Below the pieces are notes generated by a model, which saw only the letters and a list, made by a program, of their open reading frames with translations, searched no databases and was not told the DNA's origin. Shown one piece after another: positions 26,502 through 45,654 of a DNA stretch of 64,000 nt. The first letter of the stretch is position 1. Each line of letters begins with the position of its first letter. The DNA comes from Phycisphaerae bacterium (lineage in GTDB: Bacteria; Planctomycetota; Phycisphaerae; JAAYCJ01), in the NCBI GenBank assembly GCA_012729815.1, contig JAAYCJ010000014.1:1043-65042 (forward strand), given 5' to 3'. Made by a program: the position numbers and the translations under genes.

Positions 26502-26639
26502 CGCGAAAATCCTTCACTCAAAGCCTTCGGTGTTAGCGGAGAGTCTACCGATCCGCCTCCGCCCACGCAATGGTAGGGCGGGAGGTTCTCGCCGAAGGCG
26601 AGGTTCACCCGCCATCCGAAAACCAACGACGAAATAAAT

Positions 26640-26692
26640 AACGTAGCTCCGCCGCCCCCGGCGGAGTCTTCCTTCATTCTGACTTCTGACCA
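26640..26692 (-). terminator. Hairpin-repeat element acting as an intrinsic terminator downstream of rnpB (copy 1 of a repeat family)
   Basis: On the minus strand: hairpin GACUCCGCCGGGGGCGGCGGAGC followed by UACGUUAUUUAUUUCG. Related copies lie at 32368 and 33541. Confidence 0.5.
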
Positions 26693-27476: not shown

Positions 27477-30400
27477 ATGACGTCGTCGAAACGAAGGAAA
27501 CCGGACCACAACAAGCCTGATGGCGACCAATCGCCGGCACCGACGCCAGAGCACGATCAGGCCCACGATCAGGCCCAGCAAGAGGCCGCCGACAAGGGCC
27601 GGTCCGAGGCTCCAGACCAGGCGCAAGACTCGGAACGCCAACAGGTTGAGGGCGAAGACGTCCAGCCGACCGACGAATGGCTCAGCCAGGGCCGCCAGGA
27701 TCAATCCAAAAGCCAGGAGACTTCCCAGCCCCCCGAGCAGGCTGACCAAGAGGCCCAACCCCGTCCGGCCCTGTTCGTGGCCGGAGTCGGGGCCTCAGCC
27801 GGAGGGGTCCGGGCCATCGAGGAGTTCTTCTCCGAAATGCCGCAGGGCTCGAAGATCGCCTTCGTCATCCTCCAGCATATGGCGCCGGGCCACCGCAGCG
27901 TCCTGGACGCCCTGATCCGCCGAAAGACCGAAATCACCGTTGAAGAGGCCCAGGAAAAAGCCCGTCTCCAGGCCGATCACGTCTACGTCGTCCAGTCCGG
28001 CAGGGACGTGGACTTCCGCGACGGCTGTTTCCACTTCGAAGCCTCCGGCGAGGAACGCGGCAGCCGCATGCCCATCGACCACCTCTTCCGATCGCTCGCC
28101 GCTGAGTTCGGCGACCGCGCCATCGCCGTCATCCTCTCCGGAGCGGGAAGCGACGGGACGCTGGGCCTCAAGGAGATCAAGGGCGAAGGCGGCGTGGTCA
28201 TGGTCCAGGATCCTGACGAGGCTGAATACGCCAGCATGCCCAGCAGCGCCGTAGCCACCGCGCTGGCCGACATGGTCCTGCCCGTCCGCCGGATGGCCGA
28301 GGAATTGCTCCGCTACGTGGACCACCCAGCCGCCGGCGCCACGCCGGCCGCCGAACGCGAGACCAACGAGCGGAAGTTCGAAAAGAACGTCCAGCGGATC
28401 ATCCAGATCGTCCGGGCCAAGACCGGACACAACTTTGTCCACTACAAACAGAACACCATCCGTCGGCGGATCCAGCGGCGGATCGCCGTCCACCAACTTC
28501 CCGATATCGAGGAGTACGTCAAATTCCTCCGCCAGAACCCCGACGAGGTCCAGGCCCTCTTCCGCGACCTGTTGATCAACGTGACCAGCTTCTTCCGCGA
28601 TCCGGAGGCCTGGGTTGCCCTCCAGGAGGACGTGGTCACGCCCATCGTGCGAGACCGTGACCCGGAAGAACCCATCCGCGTCTGGGTTCCCGGCTGCGCC
28701 ACCGGTGAGGAGGCCTACTCCGTGGCCATCCTCTTCGCCGAGGCCATGGACCGCCTCGAACGCCAGATCCCGATCAAAATCTTCGCCACCGACATCAGCC
28801 CCGAGGGCATCGACGCCGCCCGCGACGGCTGCTACCCGCCCAACATCGCCGCCGACCTGACGCCCGCGCGCCTCAAGGAGTATTTCGTCAAGAAGGAAGA
28901 GCAGTACCGCGTGGTCAACCGAATCCGCGAAATGGTCGTCTTCGCCGTCCACGACCTGACCCGCGACCCGCCGTTCTCCCAACTCGACCTGATCACCTGC
29001 CGTAACCTCCTGATCTACATGGACCAGGACCTCCAGAAAACCATCCTCCCCGTCTTCCACTACAGCCTGGCCCGAGGCGGGTGCCTGTTTCTGGGCACTT
29101 CCGAGGGCGTCGGCGATTTCCTCCAAATGTACGCCCCGGTCGACAAGAGGTGGAAGATCTACCGGGTCGAACCGGTCTCCAGCGAGCGGCACATCGAGGA
29201 ATTCCGCCAGGCCATCCTCGGCCTCGAGCCGCCAAGACTCCGACGCGTGATCGCCATGGCGGACCGCGAGAAACCGCGGGAAAAAGAAACCCGATCCGGT
29301 GATCGCGAGGATCGGCCCGCTCCGCCCGCGCCCGTCGACGCCCGCGAGGTCCTGCGGCGGACCATGATGGACCGCTACGCCCCGCCCGCCGTCCTGCTCG
29401 ACCACGACTTTAACGTCCTCTACTTCCACGGCGAGACCGACAAGTTCCTCCGCCCTCCCCAGGGCGAGCCGGCGTTCAACCTCCTCGCCATGGCCCGCGA
29501 TAGCCTGCTCTACCGCCTCACCGTCGCCCTCCGCGAGGCCCGCAGCGAAGGCAAGCCCGTCCGCTGCGAACAAATCCCGGTCCGTCGCACCGACGGGCGG
29601 TTCTTCAACGCCGACCTGACCATCAGCCCCCTCGAACGCCAGCGCGGCGGCCCGCGGCTCCTTTTGGTCACCTTCGAGGAGCACCCCGGACCTGATGACG
29701 AGGAGGCCCGACAGGCCGACCGCGACCGCGAATCCGACGCCCGTCACCAAGACCTCCAGGACCAGCTCAACTCCACCCGCCAGGACCTCCAGGCCACCAT
29801 CGAGGAACTCGAAACCTCCAACGAGGAACTCAAGAGCGCCAACGAGGAGCTTCAAGCCAACAACGAAGAGCTCCAGAGCGCCAACGAGGAACTCGAGGCC
29901 TCCCGCGAGGAACTCCAGAGCGCCAACGAGGAACTCGAGACGGTCAATACCGAACTCCACCGCCGCAACGAAGCCCTCACCGAGGCCCACGACGACATCA
30001 ACAACTTCTTCGGGGCCACCGACATCGCCACCCTCATCCTCGACACCAGGCTCCGCATCAAGCGATTCACCCCGGCGACCAAGCGGATCTTCAACCTGAT
30101 CGACGCCGACCACGGACGGGTCATCACCGATCTCACCTCGCAGCTCATTGACGTGGACCTGCTGGACCAGGCCCGCGACGTGATCGACACCCTCGACAAA
30201 AAGGAACTCGAGGTCCGGACCCGCGACGGCGGCTGCTACCAGTTGCGAATCCTGCCCTACCGCACCGCCGACAACGTCATCGAGGGCGTCGTCCTGACCT
30301 TCCAGAACATCAGCGAGGTCAAGCGAGTCCAGGAGCGGGCCCGCGACGCCCAGCGTTACGCCGAAAGCGTCATCGCCACCGTCCGCGAGCCTCTGGTCGT

Positions 30401-32235: not shown

Positions 32236-32367
32236 CGACCCGCACCCGCCAAAGAGAAACCTCCGCCGTCGATTCCACTTCCCTTTAAGACGGCCCGGAT
32301 CACGCGGAACACGCGGAGGGGATAAAGAAGAAATGAAAATTGAAAATATCAAATACCAAAAATCAAA

Positions 32368-32455
32368 ATGTGGCTCCGCCGCCCTCGGCGGAGTCTTCTC
32401 CTCATTCTGACTTCTGGCTTCTTTCCCTCCGCGCGTTCCGCGTGCTCCGTGCTGA
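32368..32455. repeat. ~90-bp hairpin-repeat element, copy 2 (acts as a minus-strand terminator after the radical SAM pseudogene)
   Basis: tgtggctccgccgccctcggcggagtcttctcctcattctgacttctggcttctttccctccgcgcgttccgcgtgctccg. On the minus strand the hairpin is followed by a long U-rich tract ACAUUUUGAUUUUUGGUAUUUGAUAUUUUC. Confidence 0.6.
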
Positions 32456-32469
32456 TCTTCATGGGTCTT

Positions 32470-33464
32470 CCTCGGTACACGCGAATACCCCCGGCACGCC
32501 GACCCCACGTCCGTGTCCCCATGCACCAGCCGTCTGCCGGCGCGAAATTCCTCGCCGTTAAACGCGTCGAGAAAGCTCTGCCGTTTCAGGTCGCCCCACG
32601 CGAACCGCTGCTCGCCGACCACGCAGCAGGGCAGCAGCGTACCGTCGAAATGGATGACCGGAAAGTCGTACAGGTCCGTGCAGTAGGGCGGCTGCTTCTC
32701 ATCCACCTGGCAGGAGCCCTTGAGGCCATGCTCGTTGTAGACCTGCCCGTCCAGCGCCCCTTCGCCAAGGGCCAGATCGTCCACCTCCAGTTCCGCAGCC
32801 AGCCTGCGGGCCGCTGGTATCTCGTGCAGGTGTGCGGAAAGCACAAAAACCGCCAGACGATCCGCGGCGTCTGGCGACCCAGCGCCCGGCGGACCTCGAC
32901 CATCCGCCGCAGGTTCGCCAACGCCCGCTCGCACGACCCGCCGCGTCAGTACGTCGCGTAGGTCTCCTGCGTCGCCCCGTCAATCGAGCCGACAAGGAAA
33001 TCCAGACCCGACTCCACCAGCCGCTCGGCCAGACCGTCCGGCAGGTGGTTCAAATTGCTGTGAATCTGCGTGCCCACCCCGCGCCCGTGGATCGACGCGA
33101 TGATCTCCGGCAATTCCCGATTCAACAGCGGCTCTCCCCAGTTGAACAGGTTCACCTGCACCAGATGCGGCCAGAGCTCATCGAGAAATCGCTCCGCGTC
33201 CGCCCGCTGCAAAAACCCTCGGGCCAGCGGCTCGGTCCGCGCCCGGCCGGTGCAGCACCGAAGGTTACAGATATTGCCCGGCTCCAGGACGATCCGCCAC
33301 GGATACGCCTCGACCGTCTGGGCTCCGCCCGTCGCCGCCGCGTGCAGCTTCCGCGCATTGGTCAGCTTCGCCTCGCTGCCGTACCGCCGCCAAAGCTCCC
33401 GGCCCACCGTCGAGAGCCGCCGAACGTCGAAGCCCGTTTCCGTCGCCTGCGTCGGCGCCATCAT
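32470..33464 (-). pseudogene. Radical SAM / SPASM-domain enzyme, inactivated
   Basis: The N-terminal ORF 32946..33464 carries the radical SAM core (EPGNICNLRCC, NWGEPLL, VGSIDGATQETYATY) and ends at a TGA. The same frame then continues with conserved sequence RGGSCERALANLRRMVEVRRALGRQTPRIVWRFL. A +1/-1 frame change near 32690 is needed to reach HEIPAARRLAAELEVDDL...C..C...PCC (SPASM-like). No proper stop codon is found; the 3' end runs into repeat copy 2. Confidence 0.65.
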
Positions 33465-33540
33465 CTTGTCTCATCGCGATTCGCGCACAAGGTCTCCACC
33501 ATCTTCATCGGCTCACCTCGCCCCTCCAGTCCACTCAACT

Positions 33541-33630
33541 TGTGGCTCCGCCGCCCCCGGCGGAGTCTTCCTTCTTCATTCTGGCTACTGACTTCTGCCT
33601 TCTCCCCTCCGCGTGCTCCGCGTGATCCGC
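33541..33630. repeat. ~90-bp hairpin-repeat element, copy 3
   Basis: tgtggctccgccgcccccggcggagtcttccttcttcattctggctactgacttctgccttctcccctccgcgtgctccgcgtgatccg. It sits in the divergent intergenic region upstream of the radical SAM pseudogene. Confidence 0.6.
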
Positions 33631-33739
33631 GCCGTGCCTTCTGTTTTGAAGATCCCACCGCGACTTGCTTTTGTGACTCGCCTCATCCGTCGCTCCTCGC
33701 TATCATCAGCCGACAATCCGCCGACCGGACAAAGGAGAG

Positions 33740-36700
33740 TTGCCCATGTCGCTTGACCGCCTGCCCGCCCTCGACCCCGCCATCGACCTGCGCGAGGCCC
33801 TGATCGTCGAAAACGGCCTGACGTCCGATGCCCTGGCCAAACTGACCGACGTGGTCCGCCGAGTCACCGGAGGTGCGCCGGCCACCACCCCGCTGACGCC
33901 CGACCGGATCGCCGAGACGCTGACGACCCGCCACCTGATCGTCCCGGGCTGCCTGAACACCTCGCCAATCGTCGAACACTTCTATTTCCGCGAGCAGGCA
34001 TTCCACGACCGCCTCCATCCCGGTCCAGGCGGCTTGGTGATCCGCACCCTCGTCGCACCCACCGCCGCCCGCAACGTCCTGTTCCTCGGCGCCTCCGACC
34101 CCGCAGGCCAGGTCGCCGCCATCGAACGGCTTGCCCAACTGATCGACCGACACGGCCCGGTTCTGCCCGCTTTGCACGAGACGCAGCGGACCACCGTCCG
34201 GCCCGACCGCGACCCGGACCAGTACCCTCTGGCCTGGCTCTTCGAACCGCTCGACGGCGACCGCCACCGTTTCACCGTCAACCGATTCTCCCAGGCCGCC
34301 CTCCGCTATCTCTACACCGCCGACCAGGACGACGGCCAACGCCTCATCGAAATCGCCCAGGAGATGAGCCGCCGTGACGAGCCCACCGACCTGCGCCTCG
34401 GCACCATCCGCCAGTCCGACCATTACTTCTCGCACCGCATGGTCGTCTACTGGCAACTCGTCGAACCGCTGCCGCTCTTTGCCGAACCGCTTCGCCAAGC
34501 CGTCGTCGAGGCCCTCTTCGACCACCACCACTCCTCGGAATCCGCCGCCTCACTCGACCGCTTCCGCCAACAGATCGGCCTGCCGCCCGACCGCCACGTC
34601 ATGCTCACCGCCCTCAACGCCTGGGTCGAAGCCGAATACTTCAGCCGACGCCTCCCGGACCGCGGCGACTGGCGCACCGTGATCGACGTGGTGACCCGCT
34701 ACTTCGAATCGATCTGGCAAATGAGCAAGGGCGGTTCGGGCCTCATCGAAGGCTACGCCAGCTACCTGACCGTGGCCCTCGAAGCCGCCCTCCTGATGGG
34801 CCGACCCGACGTCATCCGCCAACCGCCGCTGCGGACCTGGTGCCAGCGTCTTTTCGGCGTCATCGGCAACATGGGCGTCATGATGCCGTCCCAACAGACC
34901 GATCCACATCGATGGGCCTCCGACGCCCTTAAGATCGCCGCCTACTTCTTCGACGACGGCCGCTTCGAGTACCTCTGTCGCACCCGCGTTCGCGCCGCTC
35001 GCCTCGGCGTCATCACCGACTCCGACTGGCCGCCGTCGCGGCTCTTTCCCGGACCCGATCCGGTCCTGCCCGCCGAGTATCGCGACCTGAAGGTCATGCC
35101 CCTCGACGAAGTCTTCCGCAAACACTACGCTCCTCACGCCGACCCGGACCGCGCGTTCGACATGATCGTCGGACGCGGCGGCTTCAACTTCGACGACGAA
35201 TACTTCATCGTCCAGAGCGTCCGCAGCGGCTTTAAGTACACGCCCAACGTCGGCGCCCTGACCGGCTATCAGCGGCACGGCTACCAGCTCCTGGCTGACC
35301 TGAGCAACGGCATCTGCCCGGTCCACGGCCAGATCCGCAACGTCAACACCCTCGGCGTCATTCGCGACGGCGCCGGCTGTCCCGTGCCCACCGCCGCCGA
35401 GATCGTCGACGACCGGACCCTCGACGGCGACCGCCAGATCACCCTCCGACTGCCCGACTACAACGGAACCGACTGGTACCGAACCCTCCACTGGCGACGC
35501 GGCCAGTTCCTCCTCGTCCGAGACCTGCTCCACGCCAAACAAGCCGGCCAATTCCGCGTTACCAACTACTGGAACCTCACCGGCGCGCCCGTCGCCGCCG
35601 GCTTTGCCGCCATCTTCCGTCACAACGGCTTCAACCGCGACACCGTCTTCTTCCACGCCCAATGCGCCGGTCATGACCGCGCTGTGCCACAATTCCTCCA
35701 GCCGATTGAGCCAAAAGGACTCTGGCCCTCCGGCGCCATGTCTTCCCTCAGCCCGCTCGGCCTGCCCGAAGGCGAAGCCCGCCCGTGCTGTCTCGAACTG
35801 GACTCCCTGGTGTCCCTGGCCGAAGGACAGATGTGGTCCGCCTGCACGCTGTTCCACGCGACCGTCGAAAACGCCGTCCCGCAGTACCGTCTGCAAAGCG
35901 CATCGCCCGATGAAGCCCGCGTCAACGGCGAAACCATCCGCTTCGCCGCCACGCCCCCGAACCAAGGTCCGGGCACGACGTTCGCCGCCGCCGCTGAGCA
36001 TGGATCGTCGTACCGCCCGCACGTCGCCCAGACCTATCCGGTCGCCCAGCCGCCCGACCTGCTCGCCTGGTCCAGCCCGATCCTCGCCACCGCCACACGC
36101 GACACCATCCGCGTATTCGCTGATGATCGCGATCAGCCGTCCGATATCCATCTGGACTCCAACGTCACCGCCCTCGCCGTCTGCGACCGGTCCGTCGCGA
36201 TCGCCGCCGCCGACGGAACCATCGCTCTCTTCGATGCCGACGGACGGCGGCAGTGGCAGCGGCACTTGACCATCCTCGATCAGATCAAACCCTACTCATG
36301 GTGGGTCTGGCAGACGCCGCTGGCCACCTCGCTGCACCTCGGACCCGTCGGCCCCGACGGCGAGACGCTCCTCGTCGCCGGCTCAGCCTCCTGTGCCATC
36401 GAGGCATGGGACTTGCGCGGCGAACTGCGCTGGCGACAGCACTTCGGCTGGGGATCGGTCGCCCTGATCCAACCCGCGCCGGACCATCCCAGAGCCGCCC
36501 GAGGCCTGCTCGTCGGCCTGAGAGGCTTGTCTTGTCGCGGCGACGCCGACCTGATCGACAGCTCCGGCAAGACCGTCGCGACTTTCCAAAAAGCCCATCC
36601 CGATGAAACCGTCCGCGCCGGAGCCGAAGGATGGGACATCACCGACGCCGTCTTCGCCGAACCGTTCGAATTGGAAGGGCGGCGGTGCCTGCTCGTTGGC

Positions 36701-37075
36701 CGAAGCGGAGCCTTCTGCCACGCCACCGCCTACGACTATGCCGACCAGACCCCGCTCTGGACGACCGACTTTGGCCGCTACATCACCGGCTGCGCCATCC
36801 ATCAGCCGTCGCAACAGATCGCCGTCGGCACCGAACAGGGCCTGCTGGCCGCTTGCGACTGCGCCGGTCGGCGAACCTGGTTCCACTGGCTGCCCGCGCC
36901 GGTTACCGCCGTCGCCGCCGACCGCGATGGCTGGCTCGTCGGCTGCGACCGGCAGGTGATCCACGTCGATGCCCAAGGCCGGTGCTCTGCCCCGCTCGAA
37001 AAACAACTCCTCCTGGCGGCCGGGAACGCAGCCTTCGTGCAAACCCCTCGCGGTCTCGAGCGATGGGAGTTCTGA
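33740..37075 (+). CDS. Large hypothetical protein (1111 aa) with C-terminal PQQ-like beta-propeller repeats
   Basis: Composition is natural; the antisense ORFs are GC artefacts. C-terminal repeats (AVCDRSVAIAAADGTIALFDADGRRQWQ; AIEAWDLRGELRWRQHFG; LWTTDFGRYITGCAI) resemble PQQ/BamB blades. The N-terminal ~700 aa are unassigned. Confidence 0.6.
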   Translation: MPMSLDRLPALDPAIDLREALIVENGLTSDALAKLTDVVRRVTGGAPATTPLTPDRIAETLTTRHLIVPGCLNTSPIVEHFYFREQAFHDRLHPGPGGLVIRTLVAPTAARNVLFLGASDPAGQVAAIERLAQLIDRHGPVLPALHETQRTTVRPDRDPDQYPLAWLFEPLDGDRHRFTVNRFSQAALRYLYTADQDDGQRLIEIAQEMSRRDEPTDLRLGTIRQSDHYFSHRMVVYWQLVEPLPLFAEPLRQAVVEALFDHHHSSESAASLDRFRQQIGLPPDRHVMLTALNAWVEAEYFSRRLPDRGDWRTVIDVVTRYFESIWQMSKGGSGLIEGYASYLTVALEAALLMGRPDVIRQPPLRTWCQRLFGVIGNMGVMMPSQQTDPHRWASDALKIAAYFFDDGRFEYLCRTRVRAARLGVITDSDWPPSRLFPGPDPVLPAEYRDLKVMPLDEVFRKHYAPHADPDRAFDMIVGRGGFNFDDEYFIVQSVRSGFKYTPNVGALTGYQRHGYQLLADLSNGICPVHGQIRNVNTLGVIRDGAGCPVPTAAEIVDDRTLDGDRQITLRLPDYNGTDWYRTLHWRRGQFLLVRDLLHAKQAGQFRVTNYWNLTGAPVAAGFAAIFRHNGFNRDTVFFHAQCAGHDRAVPQFLQPIEPKGLWPSGAMSSLSPLGLPEGEARPCCLELDSLVSLAEGQMWSACTLFHATVENAVPQYRLQSASPDEARVNGETIRFAATPPNQGPGTTFAAAAEHGSSYRPHVAQTYPVAQPPDLLAWSSPILATATRDTIRVFADDRDQPSDIHLDSNVTALAVCDRSVAIAAADGTIALFDADGRRQWQRHLTILDQIKPYSWWVWQTPLATSLHLGPVGPDGETLLVAGSASCAIEAWDLRGELRWRQHFGWGSVALIQPAPDHPRAARGLLVGLRGLSCRGDADLIDSSGKTVATFQKAHPDETVRAGAEGWDITDAVFAEPFELEGRRCLLVGRSGAFCHATAYDYADQTPLWTTDFGRYITGCAIHQPSQQIAVGTEQGLLAACDCAGRRTWFHWLPAPVTAVAADRDGWLVGCDRQVIHVDAQGRCSAPLEKQLLLAAGNAAFVQTPRGLERWEF

Positions 37076-37174
37076 TCCACGACCAGCCGGCCGCCTACGC
37101 CGAATTTCAGTGTCGCCGGCCCCCGCCACCGTCCGATAAGAACACTGGTGGTACAGTCTCAATGCGGATAATCG

Positions 37175-38767
37175 ATGGCAGGTTCCTCCAGGAAAATCAA
37201 GGATCTCGATAGCCTTCTGGCGGCTTTGCGCATCGACCGCGAGGCCGGCAAGACTGTCGTCCAATGCCACGGCTGCTTCGACATCGTCCACCCCGGTCAC
37301 ATCCGCTACCTCGAATTCGCCAAACGACAAGGCGACGTCCTGGTGGTCAGCCTCACCGCCGACTCCGCCTTCACCAAGAACGACGGCCGACCCTGCATCC
37401 CCGACGCCCTCCGGGCTGAGAACCTCGCCGCCCTCGAGTGCGTCGACTACGTGGTCATTGACCCTCACCCGACCGCCAAGGAAATCCTAAGTCAAATCAA
37501 GCCGGACGCTTACGTCAAAGGCCGCGAGTACGAACAGCGGGCCGACCCCCGCTTCCTCGAAGAAAAGCAGGTCGTCGAAAGCTACGGCGGCAAGACCATC
37601 TACTCCAGCGGCGAAGTTGTCTTCTCCTCCACCGCCCTCAAGCTCGCCCACGGCGACTCCATTGATATTGCTGACCAAAAGTTAGAATTATACTGCAAGC
37701 GATATCAGATCAACCGCCGCACCGCCGAGCAGGCCCTCCGCCAGGCCCTCGGCCTGAAGGTTCTGGTCGTCGGCGATCTGGTCGTCGACCGCTACGTCTT
37801 CTGCGACGCCTCCGACGTGGCCAGCGAGGCTCCCGTGATCTCCCTGGCCCAACTCGATCAGCAGGAGTACCTCGGCGGCTCAGCCATCATCGCCCAGCAC
37901 ATCAAATCCCTCGGCGGCGAGCCGTTCCTGATCTCCTCGATCGGACGCGACCTGGCCAGCTACATGGTGCTCGAAGAACTCGACCGACAGGAAATCGAGC
38001 ACTTCATGATCCACAACCGAAGCCGACCGGTCAGCAAGACCCGCTATCTCGTCGAAGAACAGAAAATCGTCAAGGTCGACGACCACCTCGTTCAGCCGAC
38101 CGACACCCAACTCGAAAAACGCATCCTCGACCAGGTCGCCCAACGGGCCGACGAGTTCCAAGCCGTCATCTTCTGCGATTTCGGCTACGGCTTGCTCACC
38201 GCCGGCCTCATCGAAAAACTCACCGCCATGCTCCGCGACCGCGTCGGCTGGATCTCAGCCGACGTCAGCGGAACCCGCGGCAAACTCATGGCCTTCCGCA
38301 ACGTCGATCTGCTGACTCCCACCGAACGCGAAATCCGCGCCGCCATGCACGACTTCGAGCAGGGCCTCTCGCCCCTGGCCCACATGCTCCTGACCCGCAC
38401 CGACAGCCGAAACCTCTTCGTCACCCTCGGCCGCAAGGGACTCGTCATCTTCGACGGCGCCAACCGCACCAGGGACGGCCGGCCCAACCCCGATGCCCGC
38501 CTCCGCAGCGAACATATTCCCACCCTCGCCGCCAGCATCCTCGACCGTCTCGGCTGCGGCGATGCCCTGCTGGCCACGTCCACCATGGTCCTGGCCGCCG
38601 GCGGCACCCTCGAAATGGCCGGCTACCTCGGTTCCCTTGCCGCCGCCATCGAACTTGGCCGACTCGGCAACGTCCCCGTCAGCTACGAAATGATGATGCA
38701 CGCCCTCGACGCCCAGGCCGAACTCCGCTACCTCCGCCAACCGCCCGCCCGCGCCGCCGGGGCCTAG
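37175..38767 (+). CDS. hldE: Bifunctional heptose-7-phosphate kinase / heptose-1-phosphate adenylyltransferase (HldE/RfaE-like) with reversed domain order
   Basis: The N-terminal cytidylyltransferase-like domain (VVQCHGCFDIVHPGHIRYLEFAKRQGDVLVVSL) matches RfaE domain II. The C-terminal PfkB kinase (VLVVGDLVVDRYVFCDASDVASEAPVISL ... GCGDALLA) matches RfaE domain I. Confidence 0.65.
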   Translation: MAGSSRKIKDLDSLLAALRIDREAGKTVVQCHGCFDIVHPGHIRYLEFAKRQGDVLVVSLTADSAFTKNDGRPCIPDALRAENLAALECVDYVVIDPHPTAKEILSQIKPDAYVKGREYEQRADPRFLEEKQVVESYGGKTIYSSGEVVFSSTALKLAHGDSIDIADQKLELYCKRYQINRRTAEQALRQALGLKVLVVGDLVVDRYVFCDASDVASEAPVISLAQLDQQEYLGGSAIIAQHIKSLGGEPFLISSIGRDLASYMVLEELDRQEIEHFMIHNRSRPVSKTRYLVEEQKIVKVDDHLVQPTDTQLEKRILDQVAQRADEFQAVIFCDFGYGLLTAGLIEKLTAMLRDRVGWISADVSGTRGKLMAFRNVDLLTPTEREIRAAMHDFEQGLSPLAHMLLTRTDSRNLFVTLGRKGLVIFDGANRTRDGRPNPDARLRSEHIPTLAASILDRLGCGDALLATSTMVLAAGGTLEMAGYLGSLAAAIELGRLGNVPVSYEMMMHALDAQAELRYLRQPPARAAGA

Positions 38768-38788
38768 CGCTCCAACTCCGCGCAGAAC

Positions 38789-38815
38789 GACGCCCGCCAA
38801 AACTCGACGGGCGTC
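38789..38815. terminator. Perfect 8-bp GC hairpin between convergent genes (possible bidirectional terminator, no U-tract)
   Basis: GACGCCCG (11-nt loop) CGGGCGTC lies between the HldE-like stop and the PEP-CTERM gene stop. Confidence 0.3.
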
Positions 38816-38838
38816 AAATCCTCATGTCGCTCAAATGG

Positions 38839-39585
38839 CTACAGCCGCCGGCGGATCCATCCGACCGCGCCCAACCCGATCATCGCCAGCACGACTGCTC
38901 CGGGCGCCGGCACCGGGAGCGGCGCCGCCAGGATCATGTACCCTTCGCCAAACTGGTCGTTGTTCTCGCTGCTCCTGGCTGTGATCGCCGGAATCGCAAA
39001 GCCGCTGATCCAGAACCCCAACTCGAACCCTTCGCCGGGGTCCACGTTGTTGCCGAACTCAATCGCCAGCGCCGCAAAGTCGATCGTGTCGTTGCCGTCC
39101 TGCCCCAGCACGTGAAGCGAGGCGTCTACCGTTACGTCGCCGTACGGCGTGAACATGATCTCCGCCGCACCCGTGCCGCCCGGCACCACCGGATCGATCA
39201 CGTCGGCAATGGAAATCGGCAGGTTGCCGTTGTTGATTCCCCAGAACTCACCTGGAACCAGCAGCATCGCGAACCCGTGCCACGGCAACGTGCTCTCGTT
39301 GTACGCGCTGAAGTAGGTCAGCACCGGCGGCTCGTAAGGCGGGTATTCGTACGTCCACATGAACAACTCGATCTCCCGGTACCACGCTGCCGCGTCCAGC
39401 GTCCCGGGTCCGCTGTCGATAGGCGTGTGCGAGAACTCCGCATAGACGTCCACCTCCCCGGCGCCCGGCGGTGTCGAGTCCAGCGTCCCGTTGTGCTGGA
39501 CAATCGTGTGGATCACAGCCTGGGCCGGCAACGCGGCCGCCGCCGCGCATACAATTCCCCACAGCAGGACACGTACAGCTTTCAT
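38839..39585 (-). CDS. Secreted PEP-CTERM domain protein
   Basis: Start re-called to MKAVRVLLWGIVCAAAAALPAQA (signal peptide), which has a GGGAGGAG RBS. The C-terminus PLPVPAPGAVVLAMIGLGAVGWIRRRL is a PEP-CTERM sorting signal in its VPAP variant. Confidence 0.75.
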   Translation of the reverse strand: MKAVRVLLWGIVCAAAAALPAQAVIHTIVQHNGTLDSTPPGAGEVDVYAEFSHTPIDSGPGTLDAAAWYREIELFMWTYEYPPYEPPVLTYFSAYNESTLPWHGFAMLLVPGEFWGINNGNLPISIADVIDPVVPGGTGAAEIMFTPYGDVTVDASLHVLGQDGNDTIDFAALAIEFGNNVDPGEGFELGFWISGFAIPAITARSSENNDQFGEGYMILAAPLPVPAPGAVVLAMIGLGAVGWIRRRL

Positions 39586-39644
39586 GGTCTCCTCCCTTCG
39601 AAATGGCTGTGCAACGCAAACCCCGATCCCCGCCAACGGCCCAT

Positions 39645-39673
39645 ATAATAAACCGAGAGGTACGCTGTGTCAA
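39645..39673 (-). promoter_or_regulatory. Near-consensus sigma70-type promoter (TTGACA, 17-nt spacer, TATTAT) for the PEP-CTERM gene
   Basis: On the minus strand the hexamers put the start site about 50 nt upstream of the ATG. The listed TTG start at 39636 lies inside this promoter/UTR. Confidence 0.5.
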
Positions 39674-39954
39674 CAGCAAACCCGCCAGAAAACGCACCGT
39701 CGCGCTCGTGAATCGCTCCACCACGCCCCCGGCCGCCGCCGTCACGAACAATCCGCCATGACGCCCACCGGGTTATGAACGGACAAGAAAGAAAGGGGAC
39801 ATTCTACTTTTCCGGAGTCGCCATCCCATCTGGCGCCCGGTGAGCCAATGCACGGCCAGCACTTCACAACCGATGGCTCGCCGCAGGCGAGTGTCACGCG
39901 CCGTTCCCTTCGAGTACCCGCCGCCTCGATACAGCGTTGTCCGCCCCAGTGGTC

Positions 39955-40110
39955 GGCCGCAACCCAAGCCGCCGGACCAAGCCCCTTCTTGCCTTCCATC
40001 CAATTCTCGCCCCACGCCGCATCCACCTGGATCGGCACGTCCACCGCGATCGCCTTCGGCATCAGGTCGCTGACCTCGGCCTCCATCCACTCGATCCCCG
40101 CCTTCGGCCC
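39955..40110. repeat. Diverged duplicate (~150 bp, ~80-85% identity) of the polA 3' coding end plus its 3' flank
   Basis: 39958-40110 aligns with 42919-43070 (ccgcaac..caagcccct(a/t)cttgccttccatcca(g/a)ttctc..cccacgccgc(g/a)tccacc..gatcggcacgtccacc...). The embedded peptide AIAVDVPIQVDAAWGENWMEGK matches the polA C-terminus AIKVDVPIKVDAAWGENWMEGK. Confidence 0.75.
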
Positions 40111-40533
40111 AGCCGGACTCCGGGCCGAACAGGCATCGTACCTCGCCGCCACCAGCACGCACCGCTCAGCGCCGGCCGACTCGCCCCAGACCGCCCCGGG
40201 TGCCAGCCACAACACGCCGATCACCAGCCCGTACGCCATCCGCATTGCACACCACCTCCGCGTCTGCCACCTTCAGCGGGCAGGCGTCTCCCGCTCCTGA
40301 AAACTGCGAAATCCCCAACCACTATCAAACGTGAAATAAGACTATACCGGCTAACCCCTGGCTGAAGATGCAAAGCTGCTGCTGGACCGACAACAACCAC
40401 ACCATGAATCATAAAAACGACACATAACGCAACTGAAAACCCCTGGCTCCGACGAGCAGAGAACGCAAACACCTTAAACAACCGAAGGCGAACGCCCTGC
40501 GAAACCACCAGTTGTCTCCGTGACGCCGATGGT

Positions 40534-42579
40534 CTACCGCAGCGTCGTCTCGACGTCGAACGGCGGGCTTGGCTCGCAGTCGTTCCACCGGATGGTGCCA
40601 TCCCCCCACGGCCGCGTCTCACCACGAATTGTCCAATTCGTGGCATCGAAAACGAGGTCGGGGAGATCCACCCCCCCACCAAGTCTTCGCTTGGTTTTCG
40701 TGACCTCGCCCGTATGCTTATCGACCTTGGTTTCAGTGTACTCCAAGCTGGTGGTGTCCTGAAAGTTAAGCCAGCCCGAACCTGTTTCCCCGTCGGCAAG
40801 CCCGCCGAATGTGTGAAGGGGATCGCGAGTGATATTCTGGGAATCGCCGCCTTCGTACGTGATGAGAACTTCATCATCCTCATACTTGCCCTTGACCTGC
40901 CAGGTGACGATCGTGGCGCTTTCATCGAGAAATAGCTCGGCCGCTCCGACTCGCTCTTGTCGGAGATACGCGAAAACGGGGTCATGCCACGGAACCATGC
41001 AGCGGACGTAGGCCAGGTACGTGATGGTGTACCCGCCGTCCCCCATGGGGCCGGTAATCACGAACGACGGTTTCCACGCCAGCACGGTGCGACTCGGACC
41101 GCGCCGACCGTCGGGCAGCACCCCGTACATCTCACCAAACGCGCCCGCCGGCATATTGAACGACCAGCCCTCGATCAGCGATGGAAGCGGCACGTGCGGT
41201 CTGCCGGCGGTCGGATGCACGTCGTACGCGCCGATGTTCCCGACGGCCCCTCCGATATGCACCTCGCAATTGTCTTCCAGCAGGCCGTCGACGTACATCC
41301 GGCTGTCGGGGGCAATCCACAATTCGTGGATGTCCGGAACCAGGGCCAGTGTGCTTATCGCGATGTCTGGGTCTTCTTGAAAGAACAGAGTACAGGACTG
41401 CTTCTTGTCCTGGTACGTGCGCATCCTTCCCAGATCGAGAACGTTCCACGCCCAACCGGTGTCCACGGCCCCTCCCGGAGGGACTCTTTTCTTCAGACAC
41501 ACGAACTCGCCCAGCGAGTACTCCAGATTGCTCCCGGTCAGCTCCTGCAGCAGGGTCAGCCCGGCCCGCGCCGCGACAGTCCAAGGCGGCGAACCGACCC
41601 ATCCTATCACATATTCCCCTTTGCATTTCTCATGCAGCAGATTAGCCCACGGGCCTTCTGCATCTGTGTACCCGACAGTGAAAACCGGCGAGCATAGCGA
41701 GTACAGGAATGTCCTGTCCGGAAAATCGCCGGTGGCGTAGTGACGCACGAAGTCGGGTGAAACCGTGAAGTAGTCCCGCCAGACCGGTTTCTTGCCCGCG
41801 ACCTTGCTGATCACCGAGGCCAACGCGAGGCGCTTTTCCAGCAGGTCCTTGGCGTAGGGCCGCAACGATTCGGCGTCGGTGGGCACCGGCGTGGTTGTCG
41901 TCACCCACTTTGTCCCGTTCGGCGTCGTGATCAGGATGATCACCCCGTACTGCGTGAGGCTCTTGAAGAGCTCGACCGTCGCCTCCTTCGGCTTGACGTC
42001 ATACCCGCGGTCCTTGAGCATCTTCTCGAACAGATCCCGGACCTCCTCGCCATAAATCGGGTCAACCACCGTGCTGCTTGTCGCGATCAGGGCCTTGTTG
42101 CTGGCGGGAAACCAAACGCGACTCTCCTGAAAGAGGCGGCCGCCGGTGACGTCATCAACCTCCGCAACCTTGGCCGATGCCTTCGGAACGACCGTCTCCT
42201 CAACAGTCTCGTCGGGAATGGCCAGTTGTTCCGCCTCGTCGATCACCACGAACGCGTGGTTCATCCCCGACTTGAACACCGTCTCAACCCGCCGCCCGTC
42301 GGCATCGAGGGCGGCGCTTTCCACCCGCGGCTCGACCGCCAGCGACTCGACCAGCGACTGCAAAACCGTCTCGACCGCCTCCCCGTCCTCGATCATCGCC
42401 GTCAGCCGCTCTCCCTGGCTGCGAATCACCGACAGGTCCGTTACCACCTTCTCAGCCGCCTCGGCGTTCGGATCCCCGGGTGGATCATCGCCTATGCCGT
42501 CGCACCCAGACCCGATGACCAACCCGCACCCGACTGCCAATGCCACCACCCGTGGGATAAACGTGTTCTGGAAAAACAT
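40534..42579 (-). CDS. Hypothetical lipoprotein (681 aa)
   Basis: Signal peptide with lipobox (LAVGC). Composition is natural (D/E/T/V-rich). No family recognised. It is flanked by the polA-end duplicate on one side and polA on the other. Confidence 0.65.
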   Translation of the reverse strand: MFFQNTFIPRVVALAVGCGLVIGSGCDGIGDDPPGDPNAEAAEKVVTDLSVIRSQGERLTAMIEDGEAVETVLQSLVESLAVEPRVESAALDADGRRVETVFKSGMNHAFVVIDEAEQLAIPDETVEETVVPKASAKVAEVDDVTGGRLFQESRVWFPASNKALIATSSTVVDPIYGEEVRDLFEKMLKDRGYDVKPKEATVELFKSLTQYGVIILITTPNGTKWVTTTTPVPTDAESLRPYAKDLLEKRLALASVISKVAGKKPVWRDYFTVSPDFVRHYATGDFPDRTFLYSLCSPVFTVGYTDAEGPWANLLHEKCKGEYVIGWVGSPPWTVAARAGLTLLQELTGSNLEYSLGEFVCLKKRVPPGGAVDTGWAWNVLDLGRMRTYQDKKQSCTLFFQEDPDIAISTLALVPDIHELWIAPDSRMYVDGLLEDNCEVHIGGAVGNIGAYDVHPTAGRPHVPLPSLIEGWSFNMPAGAFGEMYGVLPDGRRGPSRTVLAWKPSFVITGPMGDGGYTITYLAYVRCMVPWHDPVFAYLRQERVGAAELFLDESATIVTWQVKGKYEDDEVLITYEGGDSQNITRDPLHTFGGLADGETGSGWLNFQDTTSLEYTETKVDKHTGEVTKTKRRLGGGVDLPDLVFDATNWTIRGETRPWGDGTIRWNDCEPSPPFDVETTLR

Positions 42580-42945
42580 ACGCTCACCCTCGAAAAGGCG
42601 TTACTGCATATCGAGAAGAGACCCGCACCTCTACGCGTTGACCGCCCTTTCGTCTGTAAAGTTAGACCTTGCAGTGGTTCAAGAATCAGCCAACGCAACT
42701 CTATTATAGGGCAAAATGAATCGTTACGCAAGCACGAATCGCCGCACTCCCGAACCGCCCGCTATGGACCTGGCAGAGCGATCTGGACACCCAGAGATAT
42801 GCCTCTACTCCGGCTTGCGTTCTCGGTAGGCCCGCTGGTTCTCGCCGACGGCAAAGCTCCTCGTCACTCTCCCGGCCGTCCCCGTCGAAGGGGATACTGT
42901 CTGCCGCTGACAGCCCACCGCAACGGCGGCCGCCGGGCCAAGCCC

Positions 42946-45654
42946 CTACTTGCCTTCCATCCAGTTCTCCCCCCACGCCGCGTCCACCTTGATCGGCACG
43001 TCCACCTTGATCGCGTTCTCCATCAGCTCGCTGACTTCGGCTGCAGTCCGTTCGATCCCGTCTCGTGGGGCCTCGAACACCAGCTCGTCGTGCACCTGCA
43101 CCAGCATCTCCGCCGGCAGTTGTCCCTTGTGCACCTTCTCGTGAATGTCGATCATCGCCACCTTGATCAAATCCGCCGCCGACCCTTGCACCACCGCGTT
43201 AAACGCCGTCCGCTCGCCGAAGTGCCGCAAACCCGGATTACGCGAATGCAGCTCCGGGATCGGCCGCCGCCGACCGAGGATCGTCATCGCGTACCCGCTG
43301 TCCTTGGCCTCGCGCACCACCTTTTCGCGCAACTCCCCAACCGTCGAATACGTCCGGAAATACGCGTCGATGAACTTCTGCGCCTCCGTCCGCGTCACGC
43401 CGATCGTCTGCGCCAGCCCGTGCGCCGTCTGGCCGTACATCAGCCCGAAATTCACCGTCTTGGCCACCCGCCGCTGCTCCGACGTCACCAGGTTAATGTC
43501 CACGCCGAATACCTGCGACGCCACAAACGAATGGATGTCCAGGTCCTCCCGAAACGCCTTGACCAAACTCGGGTCCTTGCTGAAGTGCGCCAACAGCCGA
43601 AGCTCGATCTGCGAATAGTCGCACGTCAACAGCACATTCCGCTGCGGGTCCGCCGGCACGAACGCCGCCCGGATCTGCTGCCCGAGCTCCGACCGGATCG
43701 GAATGTTCTGAAGGTTCGGCTCGCTCGAGCTCAGCCGGCCCGTCGCCGTCACCGTCTGATTGAACGACGCGTGAATCCGCCCCGTCCGCTCGCTGATCAT
43801 CTCCGGCAGCTTGTCGATGTACGTGTTCTTGAGCTTAATGAGCTGGCGATACTCCAGCACCATCTTCGGCACCGGATGCTTCCACGCCAGCGACTCCAGC
43901 ACGTCCCCGTCGGTGCTCCGGCCCGTCTTGGTCAGCCGGCCCACCGGCAGAGACAACGCATCGAACAGCACCTCCGCCAACTGCTTCGGCGAGTCGATGT
44001 TGAACGAACGGCCCACCTGCTGGTGAATCCGCCGCGTCAGATCCAGCAACTGATCGCCTAGCCGGTTCGACAGCTTCGCCAGCTTCTCCGTGTCGATCGT
44101 CACCCCCCGATATTCCATGTCCGCCAGCACCCGCACCAGCGGCATCTCCACCTCCTCGAACAGGTTCGACAGGTGGTTCTCCCGCAACGGCGGCCCGAGC
44201 CGCTCGCAAAGCCGCCACGCCACCCACGCGTCCTCAGCCGAGTACTCCGTCACCGCCTCCGTCGGCACCTGGTCCAGCGTGAGCTGATTCCGACCCTTGC
44301 CGATCAACTCCCCGATCTTGATCGTATCGTACCCCAGAAACTCCTTGGCCAGCAGATCCAGGTTGTGGCCCGCCCGCGACGGGTCCAGCAGGTAGCTCGC
44401 CACCATCGAGTCGAACGCCACGTTCGCCAGCTCGATCCCCGCGTTCCGCAGCACGATCAGATCGTACTTCAGATTCTGCCCCACCTTCCCGACCTTCGCA
44501 TCCTCCAGCAGCGCCTTGAGAATCGCCAGCGCCTTGTCCGCCTCCAGGTGCTGCCCGTCGACCGACCGCAGCGGCACGTAAAACGCCTCCCGATCGTCGG
44601 CACACAACGACACGCCTACCAGCCGCGACGCCATCGGGTCCGTCCCCGTCGTCTCCGTGTCCACGCTGAGACGCTTGCCCGCGCCAAACCGCCGGGCCAG
44701 CGTCTCCAACTCCTCCAGCGAACGAACCTGCCGGAACTGAGGCTTCTCGATCTGCGTATCGACCCGCGCCTGCTCGCGAAGCTCCTGGCTCGCCTCCTCC
44801 AGACCAAACTGCTGAATGAACCGCGTGAACCCCAACTCCGTCAGCAGTGTCGCCAGCCGACCCCGATCCGGTATCTCCGGCCGCCATTGCTCCGGCTCAA
44901 ACCGCAGCGGAACGTCCTTCCGCAGAGTCACCAGCCGCTGCGACAACCGAATCTTTTCCACGTTCCGCGGATCCGAAAAAAACTCCCTCACCTTCGGCGT
45001 CAACTTATCTTTATTTTCTATAACGCCATTCAGGCTCCCGTACTCCTGGATCAGCTTCGCCGCCGTCTTGGGGCCCACCCCAGGAACCCCGGGCACATTG
45101 TCCGTCGTATCCCCCATCAACGCCAGAAAATCGATGATCTGACCCGCGCTCACTCCTTTTTCGGTATCCAATACCTTAGTGTCAATCATCTTTTCTTTGG
45201 TGCTGTCATAGATGACGACATCCCCGTCCAGCAACTGCTGCAGGTCCTTGTCCTTCGAACAAATGACCGTCTTGATCCCCGCCGCCCGGGCCTGCTCAGC
45301 CAGCGTGGCGATCACGTCGTCAGCCTCGTAACCGGGCACCACAATCACCGGCACCCCCATCGCCTCCAGCACCTGGTGGCACCGCCGAATCTGCACCGCC
45401 ATATCCTCCGCCATCGGCGGACGGTTCGCCTTGTACTCCGGATAAAGCTCCGACCGGAACGTCTTGCCCGGCGGGTCAAATACCGCCACCAGGTAGTCCG
45501 GCTTATGCTCCCGCAGAATCTTCAGCAGCACCGACGTCACTCCATACGTTGCGTTGGTCGGCTCGCCCGACGCGCTCGACAGGTTCCGAATCGCAAAATA
45601 TGCGGCATAAAGATGCGAATGCCCGTCGACGATGTATAATTTCCGTTCGGTCAT
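42946..45654 (-). CDS. polA: DNA polymerase I
   Basis: N-terminal 5'-3' exonuclease (LYIVDGHSHLYAAYFA), 3'-5' exonuclease domain, and polymerase motifs (RRVAKTVNFGLMYG; QVHDELVFE). 902 aa. Confidence 0.95.
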   Translation of the reverse strand: MTERKLYIVDGHSHLYAAYFAIRNLSSASGEPTNATYGVTSVLLKILREHKPDYLVAVFDPPGKTFRSELYPEYKANRPPMAEDMAVQIRRCHQVLEAMGVPVIVVPGYEADDVIATLAEQARAAGIKTVICSKDKDLQQLLDGDVVIYDSTKEKMIDTKVLDTEKGVSAGQIIDFLALMGDTTDNVPGVPGVGPKTAAKLIQEYGSLNGVIENKDKLTPKVREFFSDPRNVEKIRLSQRLVTLRKDVPLRFEPEQWRPEIPDRGRLATLLTELGFTRFIQQFGLEEASQELREQARVDTQIEKPQFRQVRSLEELETLARRFGAGKRLSVDTETTGTDPMASRLVGVSLCADDREAFYVPLRSVDGQHLEADKALAILKALLEDAKVGKVGQNLKYDLIVLRNAGIELANVAFDSMVASYLLDPSRAGHNLDLLAKEFLGYDTIKIGELIGKGRNQLTLDQVPTEAVTEYSAEDAWVAWRLCERLGPPLRENHLSNLFEEVEMPLVRVLADMEYRGVTIDTEKLAKLSNRLGDQLLDLTRRIHQQVGRSFNIDSPKQLAEVLFDALSLPVGRLTKTGRSTDGDVLESLAWKHPVPKMVLEYRQLIKLKNTYIDKLPEMISERTGRIHASFNQTVTATGRLSSSEPNLQNIPIRSELGQQIRAAFVPADPQRNVLLTCDYSQIELRLLAHFSKDPSLVKAFREDLDIHSFVASQVFGVDINLVTSEQRRVAKTVNFGLMYGQTAHGLAQTIGVTRTEAQKFIDAYFRTYSTVGELREKVVREAKDSGYAMTILGRRRPIPELHSRNPGLRHFGERTAFNAVVQGSAADLIKVAMIDIHEKVHKGQLPAEMLVQVHDELVFEAPRDGIERTAAEVSELMENAIKVDVPIKVDAAWGENWMEGK

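Follow-up and report, generated by a model that had tools for sequence, protein, structure and literature searches.

In Escherichia coli K-12, the intact icd gene runs into the element e14, and a C-terminal pseudogene fragment, icdC, lies at the far end of that element (PMC13626634). Islands that integrate in dusA by means of dusA-specific integrases duplicate the end of their target gene at the border, and the gene is still functional (PMC4482086). Here we describe a duplicated 3' end of polA, the gene for DNA polymerase I, in an uncultured Phycisphaerae bacterium. The analysis covered a 64-kb stretch of contig JAAYCJ010000014.1, referred to below as the window. The functional end of polA (copy B) is followed by 2.8 kb of DNA (40099-42917) whose single intact gene encodes a 681-aa predicted lipoprotein, and beyond it by a diverged repeat of the polA end (copy A). 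Collectively, the data indicated that copy A is a gene-fragment pseudogene from a segmental rearrangement, a known and common kind of feature whichever route produced it.

As in the icd/icdC bracket of e14 (and of phage 21), the housekeeping gene keeps an intact 3' end and a diverged C-terminal fragment follows as a direct repeat beyond the intervening DNA. Unlike this segment of 2.8 kb with one lipoprotein gene, for which neither a recombinase nor an excision variant was found, e14 measures 15 kb, carries its own integrase and excises on SOS induction. Also in contrast to e14/icd, the relic lacks its stop codon, and no stretch of identity in the alignment of the two copies exceeds 16 nt. Islands of the dusA type have a dedicated integrase by the attachment site and recur at the same site in many genomes; neither holds here. 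The locus thus shares with e14/icd-type elements the flanking repeats of a target 3' end next to an intact gene. It shows no recombinase, no sign of mobility in the contigs compared and no recurrent use of the target, and was therefore not filed with those elements.

Target-site duplications of transposons and insertion sequences measure 2-15 bp. Such elements also have direct repeats flanking the insert, but they have terminal inverted repeats and a transposase, neither of which was found here, and the present repeat spans 142 bp. Pseudogene fragments arising from segmental or tandem duplication and partial deletion are short, in register, neutral and abruptly limited and lie near their parent gene, and nothing sets copy A apart from them.

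The duplicated polA 3' end

A preliminary description of this DNA had reported a duplicated polA 3' end. The duplication is real, with limits slightly shifted to those listed in Table 1: the two copies, 142 nt each and 2961 nt apart from start to start, align without gaps at 119 of 142 positions (84%). Gapped local alignment of the 700-nt flanks of both copies found similarity confined to 142-143 nt, and the limits of the repeat are sharp and in register at both ends. BLAST analysis of copy A against the window gave 86% identity over 132 nt (E = 6e-37), and its best local score elsewhere in the window on either strand was 40, compared with 172 against copy B, which ruled out similarity at background level. 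The repeat arrangement was colinear in contigs of many independent assemblies (JGI, ENA, NCBI and Logan; megahit and SPAdes) and is therefore no assembly artefact. Chance likeness of G+C-rich sequence or an artefact of metagenome assembly, which has the G+C-rich background as its sole support, is refuted beyond reasonable doubt by these scores, by the independent assemblies and by the second strain described below.

Table 1. Positions in the window of the polA repeat, the DNA that it brackets and the adjoining features
Feature	Position	Strand	Remarks
polA (DNA polymerase I, 902 aa), intact	42946..45654	-	Pfam DNA_pol_A, E = 2e-153, and both exonuclease domains
Copy B, functional repeat copy	42918..43059	-	Last 37 polA codons (866-902, 42949-43059), TAG stop (42946-42948) and 28 nt of 3' flank
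Non-coding stretch, 338 nt, between polA and the lipoprotein gene	42580..42917	-	G+C 0.58; no Pfam match in any frame
Predicted lipoprotein gene, 681 aa	40534..42579	-	Family homologues; near-invariant Cys26
AT-richer spacer, 288 nt, downstream of the lipoprotein gene	40246..40533	-	G+C 0.54
Probable truncated 5' stub of a former gene	40099..40259	-	GGAGG and 49 codons with a signal-peptide-like start; ends exactly at the copy A junction
167-codon open reading frame	39742..40245	-	Annotated as a gene in every assembly
Copy A, decaying relic of the polA 3' end (pseudogene fragment)	39957..40098	-	Stop lost; substitutions; strain divergence
Read-through tail of the 167-codon open reading frame, non-coding character	39742..39956	-	Flat codon-position G+C
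Sigma-70-like promoter (TTGACA, 17 nt, TATTAT)	39645..39673	-	Before the PEP-CTERM gene; 11/12 matches
PEP-CTERM-type protein gene, 248 aa, next after the relic	38839..39585	-	Weak Pfam PEP-CTERM C-terminal match, below the gathering score

Along the minus strand the order is the polA body, copy B, 338 nt of non-coding DNA, the lipoprotein gene, the 288-nt spacer, a 49-codon stub, copy A, non-coding DNA and the PEP-CTERM gene. The PolA protein is 59-63% identical to other Phycisphaerae PolA. Past the end of the coding sequence 25 of 31 positions are identical between the copies, and since similarity runs 28 nt beyond the stop, copy A derives from the polA locus of its own genome or of a very close relative; a distant polA is not its source. 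An RNA or regulatory role of the repeat was considered and rejected: Rfam gave no match for the repeat, and the folding energies of both copies with their flanks stayed within shuffle noise (z from -1.3 to +1.1). The window holds no tRNA gene.

Decay of copy A and the 167-codon open reading frame

Comparison of the two copies indicated that copy A has lost its function as a gene end. Its stop codon changed from TAG to AAG, and in the polA frame 13 codons differ from copy B, 8 by non-synonymous and 5 by synonymous changes. The 8 differing residues were compared with the PolA C-termini of 90 other loci. None of the copy A residues occurs in the PolA tails of the closest relatives (L001, L002, L003, L021 and L030), whereas the copy B residue is that of at least one of these tails at 6 of the 8 positions; one of the changes in copy A replaces the conserved Lys of the PLKVD motif by Gln. 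The ratio of non-synonymous to synonymous divergence (dN/dS) between the copies, 0.35 with a dS of 0.36, lies between the values expected for two constrained copies and for one free and one constrained copy and, based on only 17 differences, does not decide between the routes considered below.

The state of copy A could be followed further in a second strain, L100, represented by an 8.8-kb Logan contig found through a 96% identical variant of the 167-aa open reading frame (ORF) that runs through the relic. L100 is 98.9% identical to window positions 33543-42354, with 96 mismatches, no insertions or deletions and the same gene order. Copy A (142 nt) differs between the strains by 4 substitutions, a density of 2.8 per 100 that exceeds those of all other regions compared and is close to the synonymous divergence of the HldE-like gene and of a gene encoding a 1111-aa protein (dS 0.034-0.036); it thus collects substitutions at roughly the neutral rate. 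At 3 of the 4 variable sites L100 has kept the copy B base, so decay went on in the lineage of the window, and one codon records successive steps, from GAG in copy B through GCG in L100 to CCG in the window. Of the 23 differences between the two copies, about 20 were already present when the strains separated, and the duplication would therefore be, very roughly, 5-10 times older than that separation. Recombination back to a single copy now seems unlikely; a crossover upstream of the lost stop would lengthen PolA by ~80 residues.

Divergence between the two strains is a mosaic along the contig. A dS of ~0.035 in the HldE-like and 1111-aa genes compares with 0.016 in the lipoprotein gene, and we counted 2 differences in 747 nt of the PEP-CTERM gene and 3 in 811 nt of intergenic DNA. 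This pattern suggests recombination between strains.

The preliminary description had also named two ORFs, the 681-aa lipoprotein ORF and the 167-aa ORF, and a ribosome-binding motif before the latter. Both ORFs were found as described, on the minus strand, and a GGAGG precedes the start codon of the 167-aa ORF (ATG) by 14 nt. The further proposal, that the duplicate had created a meaningful chimeric gene, was not supported. In the NG86 comparison between strains, dN/dS was 0.97 for the 167-codon ORF, whereas the HldE-like, 1111-aa and lipoprotein genes gave 0.12, 0.21 and 0.46, respectively. The ORF carries 8 nucleotide differences in 6 codons, and all six changed codons, admittedly a small number, are non-synonymous (A15V, C29R, P63A, Q73K, D75N and L118F). 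A per-substitution count set 1 synonymous and 7 non-synonymous substitutions in the ORF against 13 and 5 in HldE (Fisher p ~0.01); the single substitution counted as synonymous is in fact non-synonymous, which makes the contrast with HldE stronger.

The composition of the ORF changes along its length. Its first 49 codons have G+C contents of 0.69/0.63/0.88 at codon positions 1/2/3, which is coding-like, and this part, with 3 nucleotide differences in 2 codons between strains (both non-synonymous), probably represents the truncated 5' end of a former gene. The polA-derived part has textbook coding values (0.65/0.38/0.92). Over the last 71 codons and the 10 relic-derived codons before them the values are flat (0.64/0.62/0.64), and the tail has a negative coding log-likelihood in all six frames. 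The ORF is therefore probably accidental, a truncated stub that lies in frame with a stopless relic and reads into non-coding DNA.

The ORF might instead be a young functional gene, encoding a small secreted protein assembled from the signal-peptide stub, the C-terminal 37 residues of PolA and formerly non-coding DNA. Its N-terminus is signal-peptide-like, it is unbroken at 167 codons in both strains, and a GGAGG-type motif at this spacing precedes about half of the genes here and is rare elsewhere (~1.8 per kb). We nevertheless give this possibility very little credence: all changed codons are non-synonymous at a dN/dS near unity, the C-terminal 71 codons have no periodicity and a negative coding score, and neither a Pfam match nor a homologue outside its own lineage was found. 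The sole match among 5.8 billion proteins was the 96% identical variant of the sister strain. It is highly probable that copy A is a dead relic and the 167-codon ORF an accident, and this holds alike under all four routes proposed for the origin of the repeat.

Origin of the bracketed segment

Several findings bear on the origin of the segment. The stub breaks off precisely at the border of copy A, and beyond copy A no coding signal is seen again, which argues for the end of a fragment rather than a small patch inside a gene. The lipoprotein gene has the lowest G+C content at third codon positions (GC3) of the 35 window genes of at least 200 aa (0.773; mean 0.847, standard deviation 0.024, z = -3.05), and this outlier mildly favours a duplicative insertion over a tandem duplication. 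A foreign or relocated origin is also favoured by the unrelated neighbourhoods of its homologues, none beside polA, and by the lack of a lipoprotein homologue in the 91 other polA loci fetched. We therefore consider it about an even chance, taking the statement as a whole with its route, that copy A is a neutrally drifting polA-end fragment left by one old duplicative insertion of the 2.8-kb DNA.

In this account, the 2.8-kb piece would have inserted just after polA, with the 142-nt target duplicated on both sides, and would have brought along a promoter region, the lipoprotein gene and its terminator, and 49 codons from the start of a neighbouring gene. The insertion might have come about through a Campbell-type single crossover, if a circularised fragment bore a polA end of its own, or equally through repair of a staggered break. 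The proximal copy B would then have been retained by polA, leaving the gene intact, and the distal copy A would have lost its stop and drifted at a near-neutral rate. The stub, in frame with the stopless relic, would have given rise to the accidental 167-codon ORF that gene callers annotate. No recombinase is involved today, and the segment appears fixed in all sampled members of the lineage. The data show the homology, the decay of copy A, the neutral evolution of the ORF and the lack of mobility genes; that the segment was inserted at all, rather than being native, and the route by which it came, are what we infer here.

Several observations weigh against this account. No transposase is known to make a target duplication anywhere near 142 nt in length. 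The tetranucleotide distance of the bracketed DNA is unremarkable (z = 1.4, with 8% of windows equally far). Codon usage of the lipoprotein gene ranks last in the window (z = -2.7), but minus-strand genes also take the three ranks nearest to it, and the odd codon use is largely a minus-strand effect common to polA and the PEP-CTERM gene. The named members of the lipoprotein family come from the host's own phylum, so the gene may be native, and the GC3 of the stub (0.88) is host-like. No empty site or segment-free variant was present in the 30 or so contigs compared, and insertion is thus undemonstrated. Finally, the nearest other genomes (PolA identity 59-66%) have kept the upstream neighbours of polA, a gene for a 460-aa coiled-coil protein and ParB, and have lost the downstream ones; with downstream synteny already gone, no empty site can be read in these relatives.

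Codon usage was discarded as a sign of foreign origin: it is confounded by strand bias, which leaves the strand-symmetric GC3 as the only compositional evidence. Four of the five lowest codon-usage scores in the window belong to minus-strand genes, minus- and plus-strand genes differ in synonymous codon use, and the plus-strand GC skew is negative over 36-47 kb.

Signs of mobility were sought in the segment and around it. Pfam searches revealed no recombinase or transposase in the bracket, and six-frame stop-to-stop fragments of its non-coding parts gave no Pfam match of any kind at E <= 0.1. No integrase or mobility gene was recognised within ~12 kb on either side, where the long-ORF translations of 28-52 kb were read and searched against Pfam. 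There are no inverted repeats at the bracket ends, and no similarity to plasmids, phages or viral contigs was found. Contigs for structural comparison were gathered by exact-protein look-ups with PolA, the lipoprotein, the PEP-CTERM protein and the ORF variant; they included one second strain, L100, with the same arrangement. The 24 same-organism contigs aligned to the window and L100 were colinear, bar a few low-coverage chimeric ends. L020 and L114 were rejected as structural variants, their divergent parts being probable chimeric ends of contigs with 2.7-3.6x coverage. A genome scan with PolA returned only relatives at 59-63% identity, and a metagenome scan with the PolA C-terminus returned the same organism and one relative at 66%. 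None of 90 other polA loci had a second copy of its own polA 3' end, and none of the 91 other polA loci fetched held a homologue of the lipoprotein gene.

Unmatched contig ends, probably chimeric joins, were L020 3177-3375, L114 1-411 and 3253-4368, and L017 1-15. The L114 end encodes an acyl-CoA-dehydrogenase-like C-terminus, and L017 begins within the polA of another organism, at the conserved QVHDELVFE motif.

Three other routes were weighed against a duplicative insertion. If the lipoprotein gene is native, a block from polA codon 866 to stub codon 49 could have been doubled by illegitimate sister-strand exchange, after which a deletion would have removed the second block save its first 142 nt. 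Tandem duplications are the commonest spontaneous rearrangements in bacteria, and this route accounts for the truncated stub at 40099 and for the arbitrary 3' limit of the repeat; the confinement of named family members to Planctomycetota and Phycisphaerae, the host-like stub GC3 and the lack of a deviant tetranucleotide composition fit it as well. It requires two events, however, the second ending exactly where similarity now ends and also removing the only full copy of the stub gene. Nothing is left of a second lipoprotein copy downstream of copy A, and the lipoprotein gene has the lowest GC3 in the window. We regard this route as unlikely, though deserving of attention. A templated patch would need a single event: with everything native, a 142-nt copy of the polA end would have been pasted into a break 2.8 kb downstream during repair. 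This would explain the sharp limits of both copies with no call for foreign DNA, but coding periodicity, present in the stub up to the junction, does not return in any frame beyond copy A, so that a simple division of one gene by the patch does not fit, and the route gives no reason for the lipoprotein gene's low GC3. The chance that a patch of this kind produced copy A appears slim.

The remaining route takes the likeness to icd at face value. The bracket would be what is left of a site-specific integrative element for which the polA 3' end served as attachment site and which brought a replacement end, as e14 and phage 21 do at icd; copy A, corresponding to icdC, would be the original end that was displaced, and deletions would later have removed the integrase along with the other parts of the element. 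Beyond the shared topology (PMC13626634), synonymous differences concentrate in the most conserved last 20 codons, as would fit a divergence that began while both ends were functional. Against it stand the lack of any mobility gene in the bracket or in the ~12 kb on either side, and of any six-frame domain remnant in the non-coding parts, a size of only 2.8 kb with one cargo gene, the lack of a match in phage, plasmid and viral collections, and the lack of presence/absence variation in the contigs compared. With none of the 90 other polA loci showing a duplicated 3' end, polA is no recurrent target. This origin is improbable in our judgement. The same low expectation attaches to a broader version of it, in which the bracket would be the worn-down footprint of an undescribed class of integrative elements in Phycisphaerae that targets the polA 3' end and supplies a replacement end. 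Equally doubtful are its corollaries, that the lipoprotein gene is the last surviving cargo and that loss of the relic stop locked the element in place. For the duplicative insertion, which we prefer, the outcome is that the suggestion of an old insertion bringing in the lipoprotein gene stands in so far as the homology is true and the event old; import of the gene by insertion is plausible, yet unproven.

The lipoprotein gene and other features of the window

The 681-aa ORF is a real gene, as its homologues show. Its family emerged only from a full HMMER scan covering 1.84 billion representative proteins, since word-indexed protein searches with the lipoprotein or the family alignment returned the query alone. 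The scan yielded 52 distant homologues of at most 33% identity, mostly of ~700-740 aa, and those with a named source all came from metagenome-assembled genomes of Planctomycetota, Phycisphaerae or Phycisphaerales. The N-terminus carries MFFQNTFIPRVVALAVGCGLVIGSGC followed by DG, which we take to be lipobox-like, and Cys26 of its SGC motif is near-invariant across 28 aligned family members. Five homologues examined lay in five different, unrelated neighbourhoods, none of them beside polA. A conserved cluster was considered and rejected; the genes next to lipoprotein homologues (162, 97 and 249 aa) match neither the 167-aa ORF nor the PEP-CTERM gene.

No Pfam match and no PDB sequence match was found for the 681-aa protein. 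Its AF2 model is of good quality (pLDDT 83, pTM 0.82), and Foldseek searches of the PDB with this model gave only weak matches, to caspase-1 (probability 0.72, TM 0.39 on the target, E 0.06), to the paracaspase MALT1 and to lectin-like sandwiches. The motifs IEAHG and NACRG, reminiscent of the His/Cys dyad in clan CD peptidases, occur in most of the 28 family members aligned (regions of residues about 205-235 and 283-330 in the window protein). The ~35-residue loop with the His is missing from the window protein. Its identification as a clan CD cysteine peptidase of the caspase/gingipain type was rejected given the missing His loop, the weak fold match and the absence of Pfam and PDB sequence matches; for the family, the likeness is a lead only. 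With the His loop deleted and a dN/dS of 0.46 between strains, the window protein may be an inactive or relaxed member of its family.

The AT-richer spacer noted in the preliminary description is there, with a G+C content of 49% over 40300-40500 compared with 64.6% for the window, but clean intergenic regions of the window range from 47 to 61%, so it is not unusual. A terminator-like hairpin (40485-40498) lies just 3' of the lipoprotein stop. The 11-mer AACCCCTGGCT occurs twice in the spacer, at 40353-40363 and 40438-40448, 85 nt apart, with a rough chance expectation of ~0.01. On the other side of the gene, the 338-nt stretch after polA contains a perfect TATAAT on the minus strand (42703-42708). 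Contig ends cluster at the lipoprotein 5' end and promoter, at 42354 (L100), 42417 (L102), 42452 (L104), 42607 (L018 and L019, which end at the identical base) and 42669 (L105); the cluster may reflect strain heterogeneity or a drop in coverage. Beyond the relic, the 248-aa PEP-CTERM-type gene was called in all assemblies.

Two repeat features lie further off in the window. Inverted-repeat arms (43 nt, 88% complementary) at 32290-32398 and 33535-33635 adjoin a palindromic 36-nt unit, GTGGCTCCGCCGCCCyCGGCGGAGTCTTC, that has three occurrences, one of them at 26636-26671. Arms and unit together bracket ~1.26 kb in which a minus-strand radical-SAM/SPASM gene is apparently represented by two pieces that are out of frame. 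The 32290-33635 feature may represent either a gene that was disrupted or a small family of repeats. At 29743-29973, a CheB/CheR-PAS sensor gene contains eight overlapping copies of a 21-nt (7-codon) repeat that encodes a coiled coil of the EELxxANEEL type.

For annotation, the 167-aa "hypothetical protein" of every assembly should be flagged, since it most likely represents a polA pseudogene fragment that became joined by accident to the sequence beside it. To our knowledge, the mobile elements of Planctomycetota are poorly known. For the biology of the organism, the locus is one more gene-end relic marking an old rearrangement beside a housekeeping gene, and its interest would grow only if relatives showed that a mobile element of Planctomycetota truly uses polA as its attachment site.

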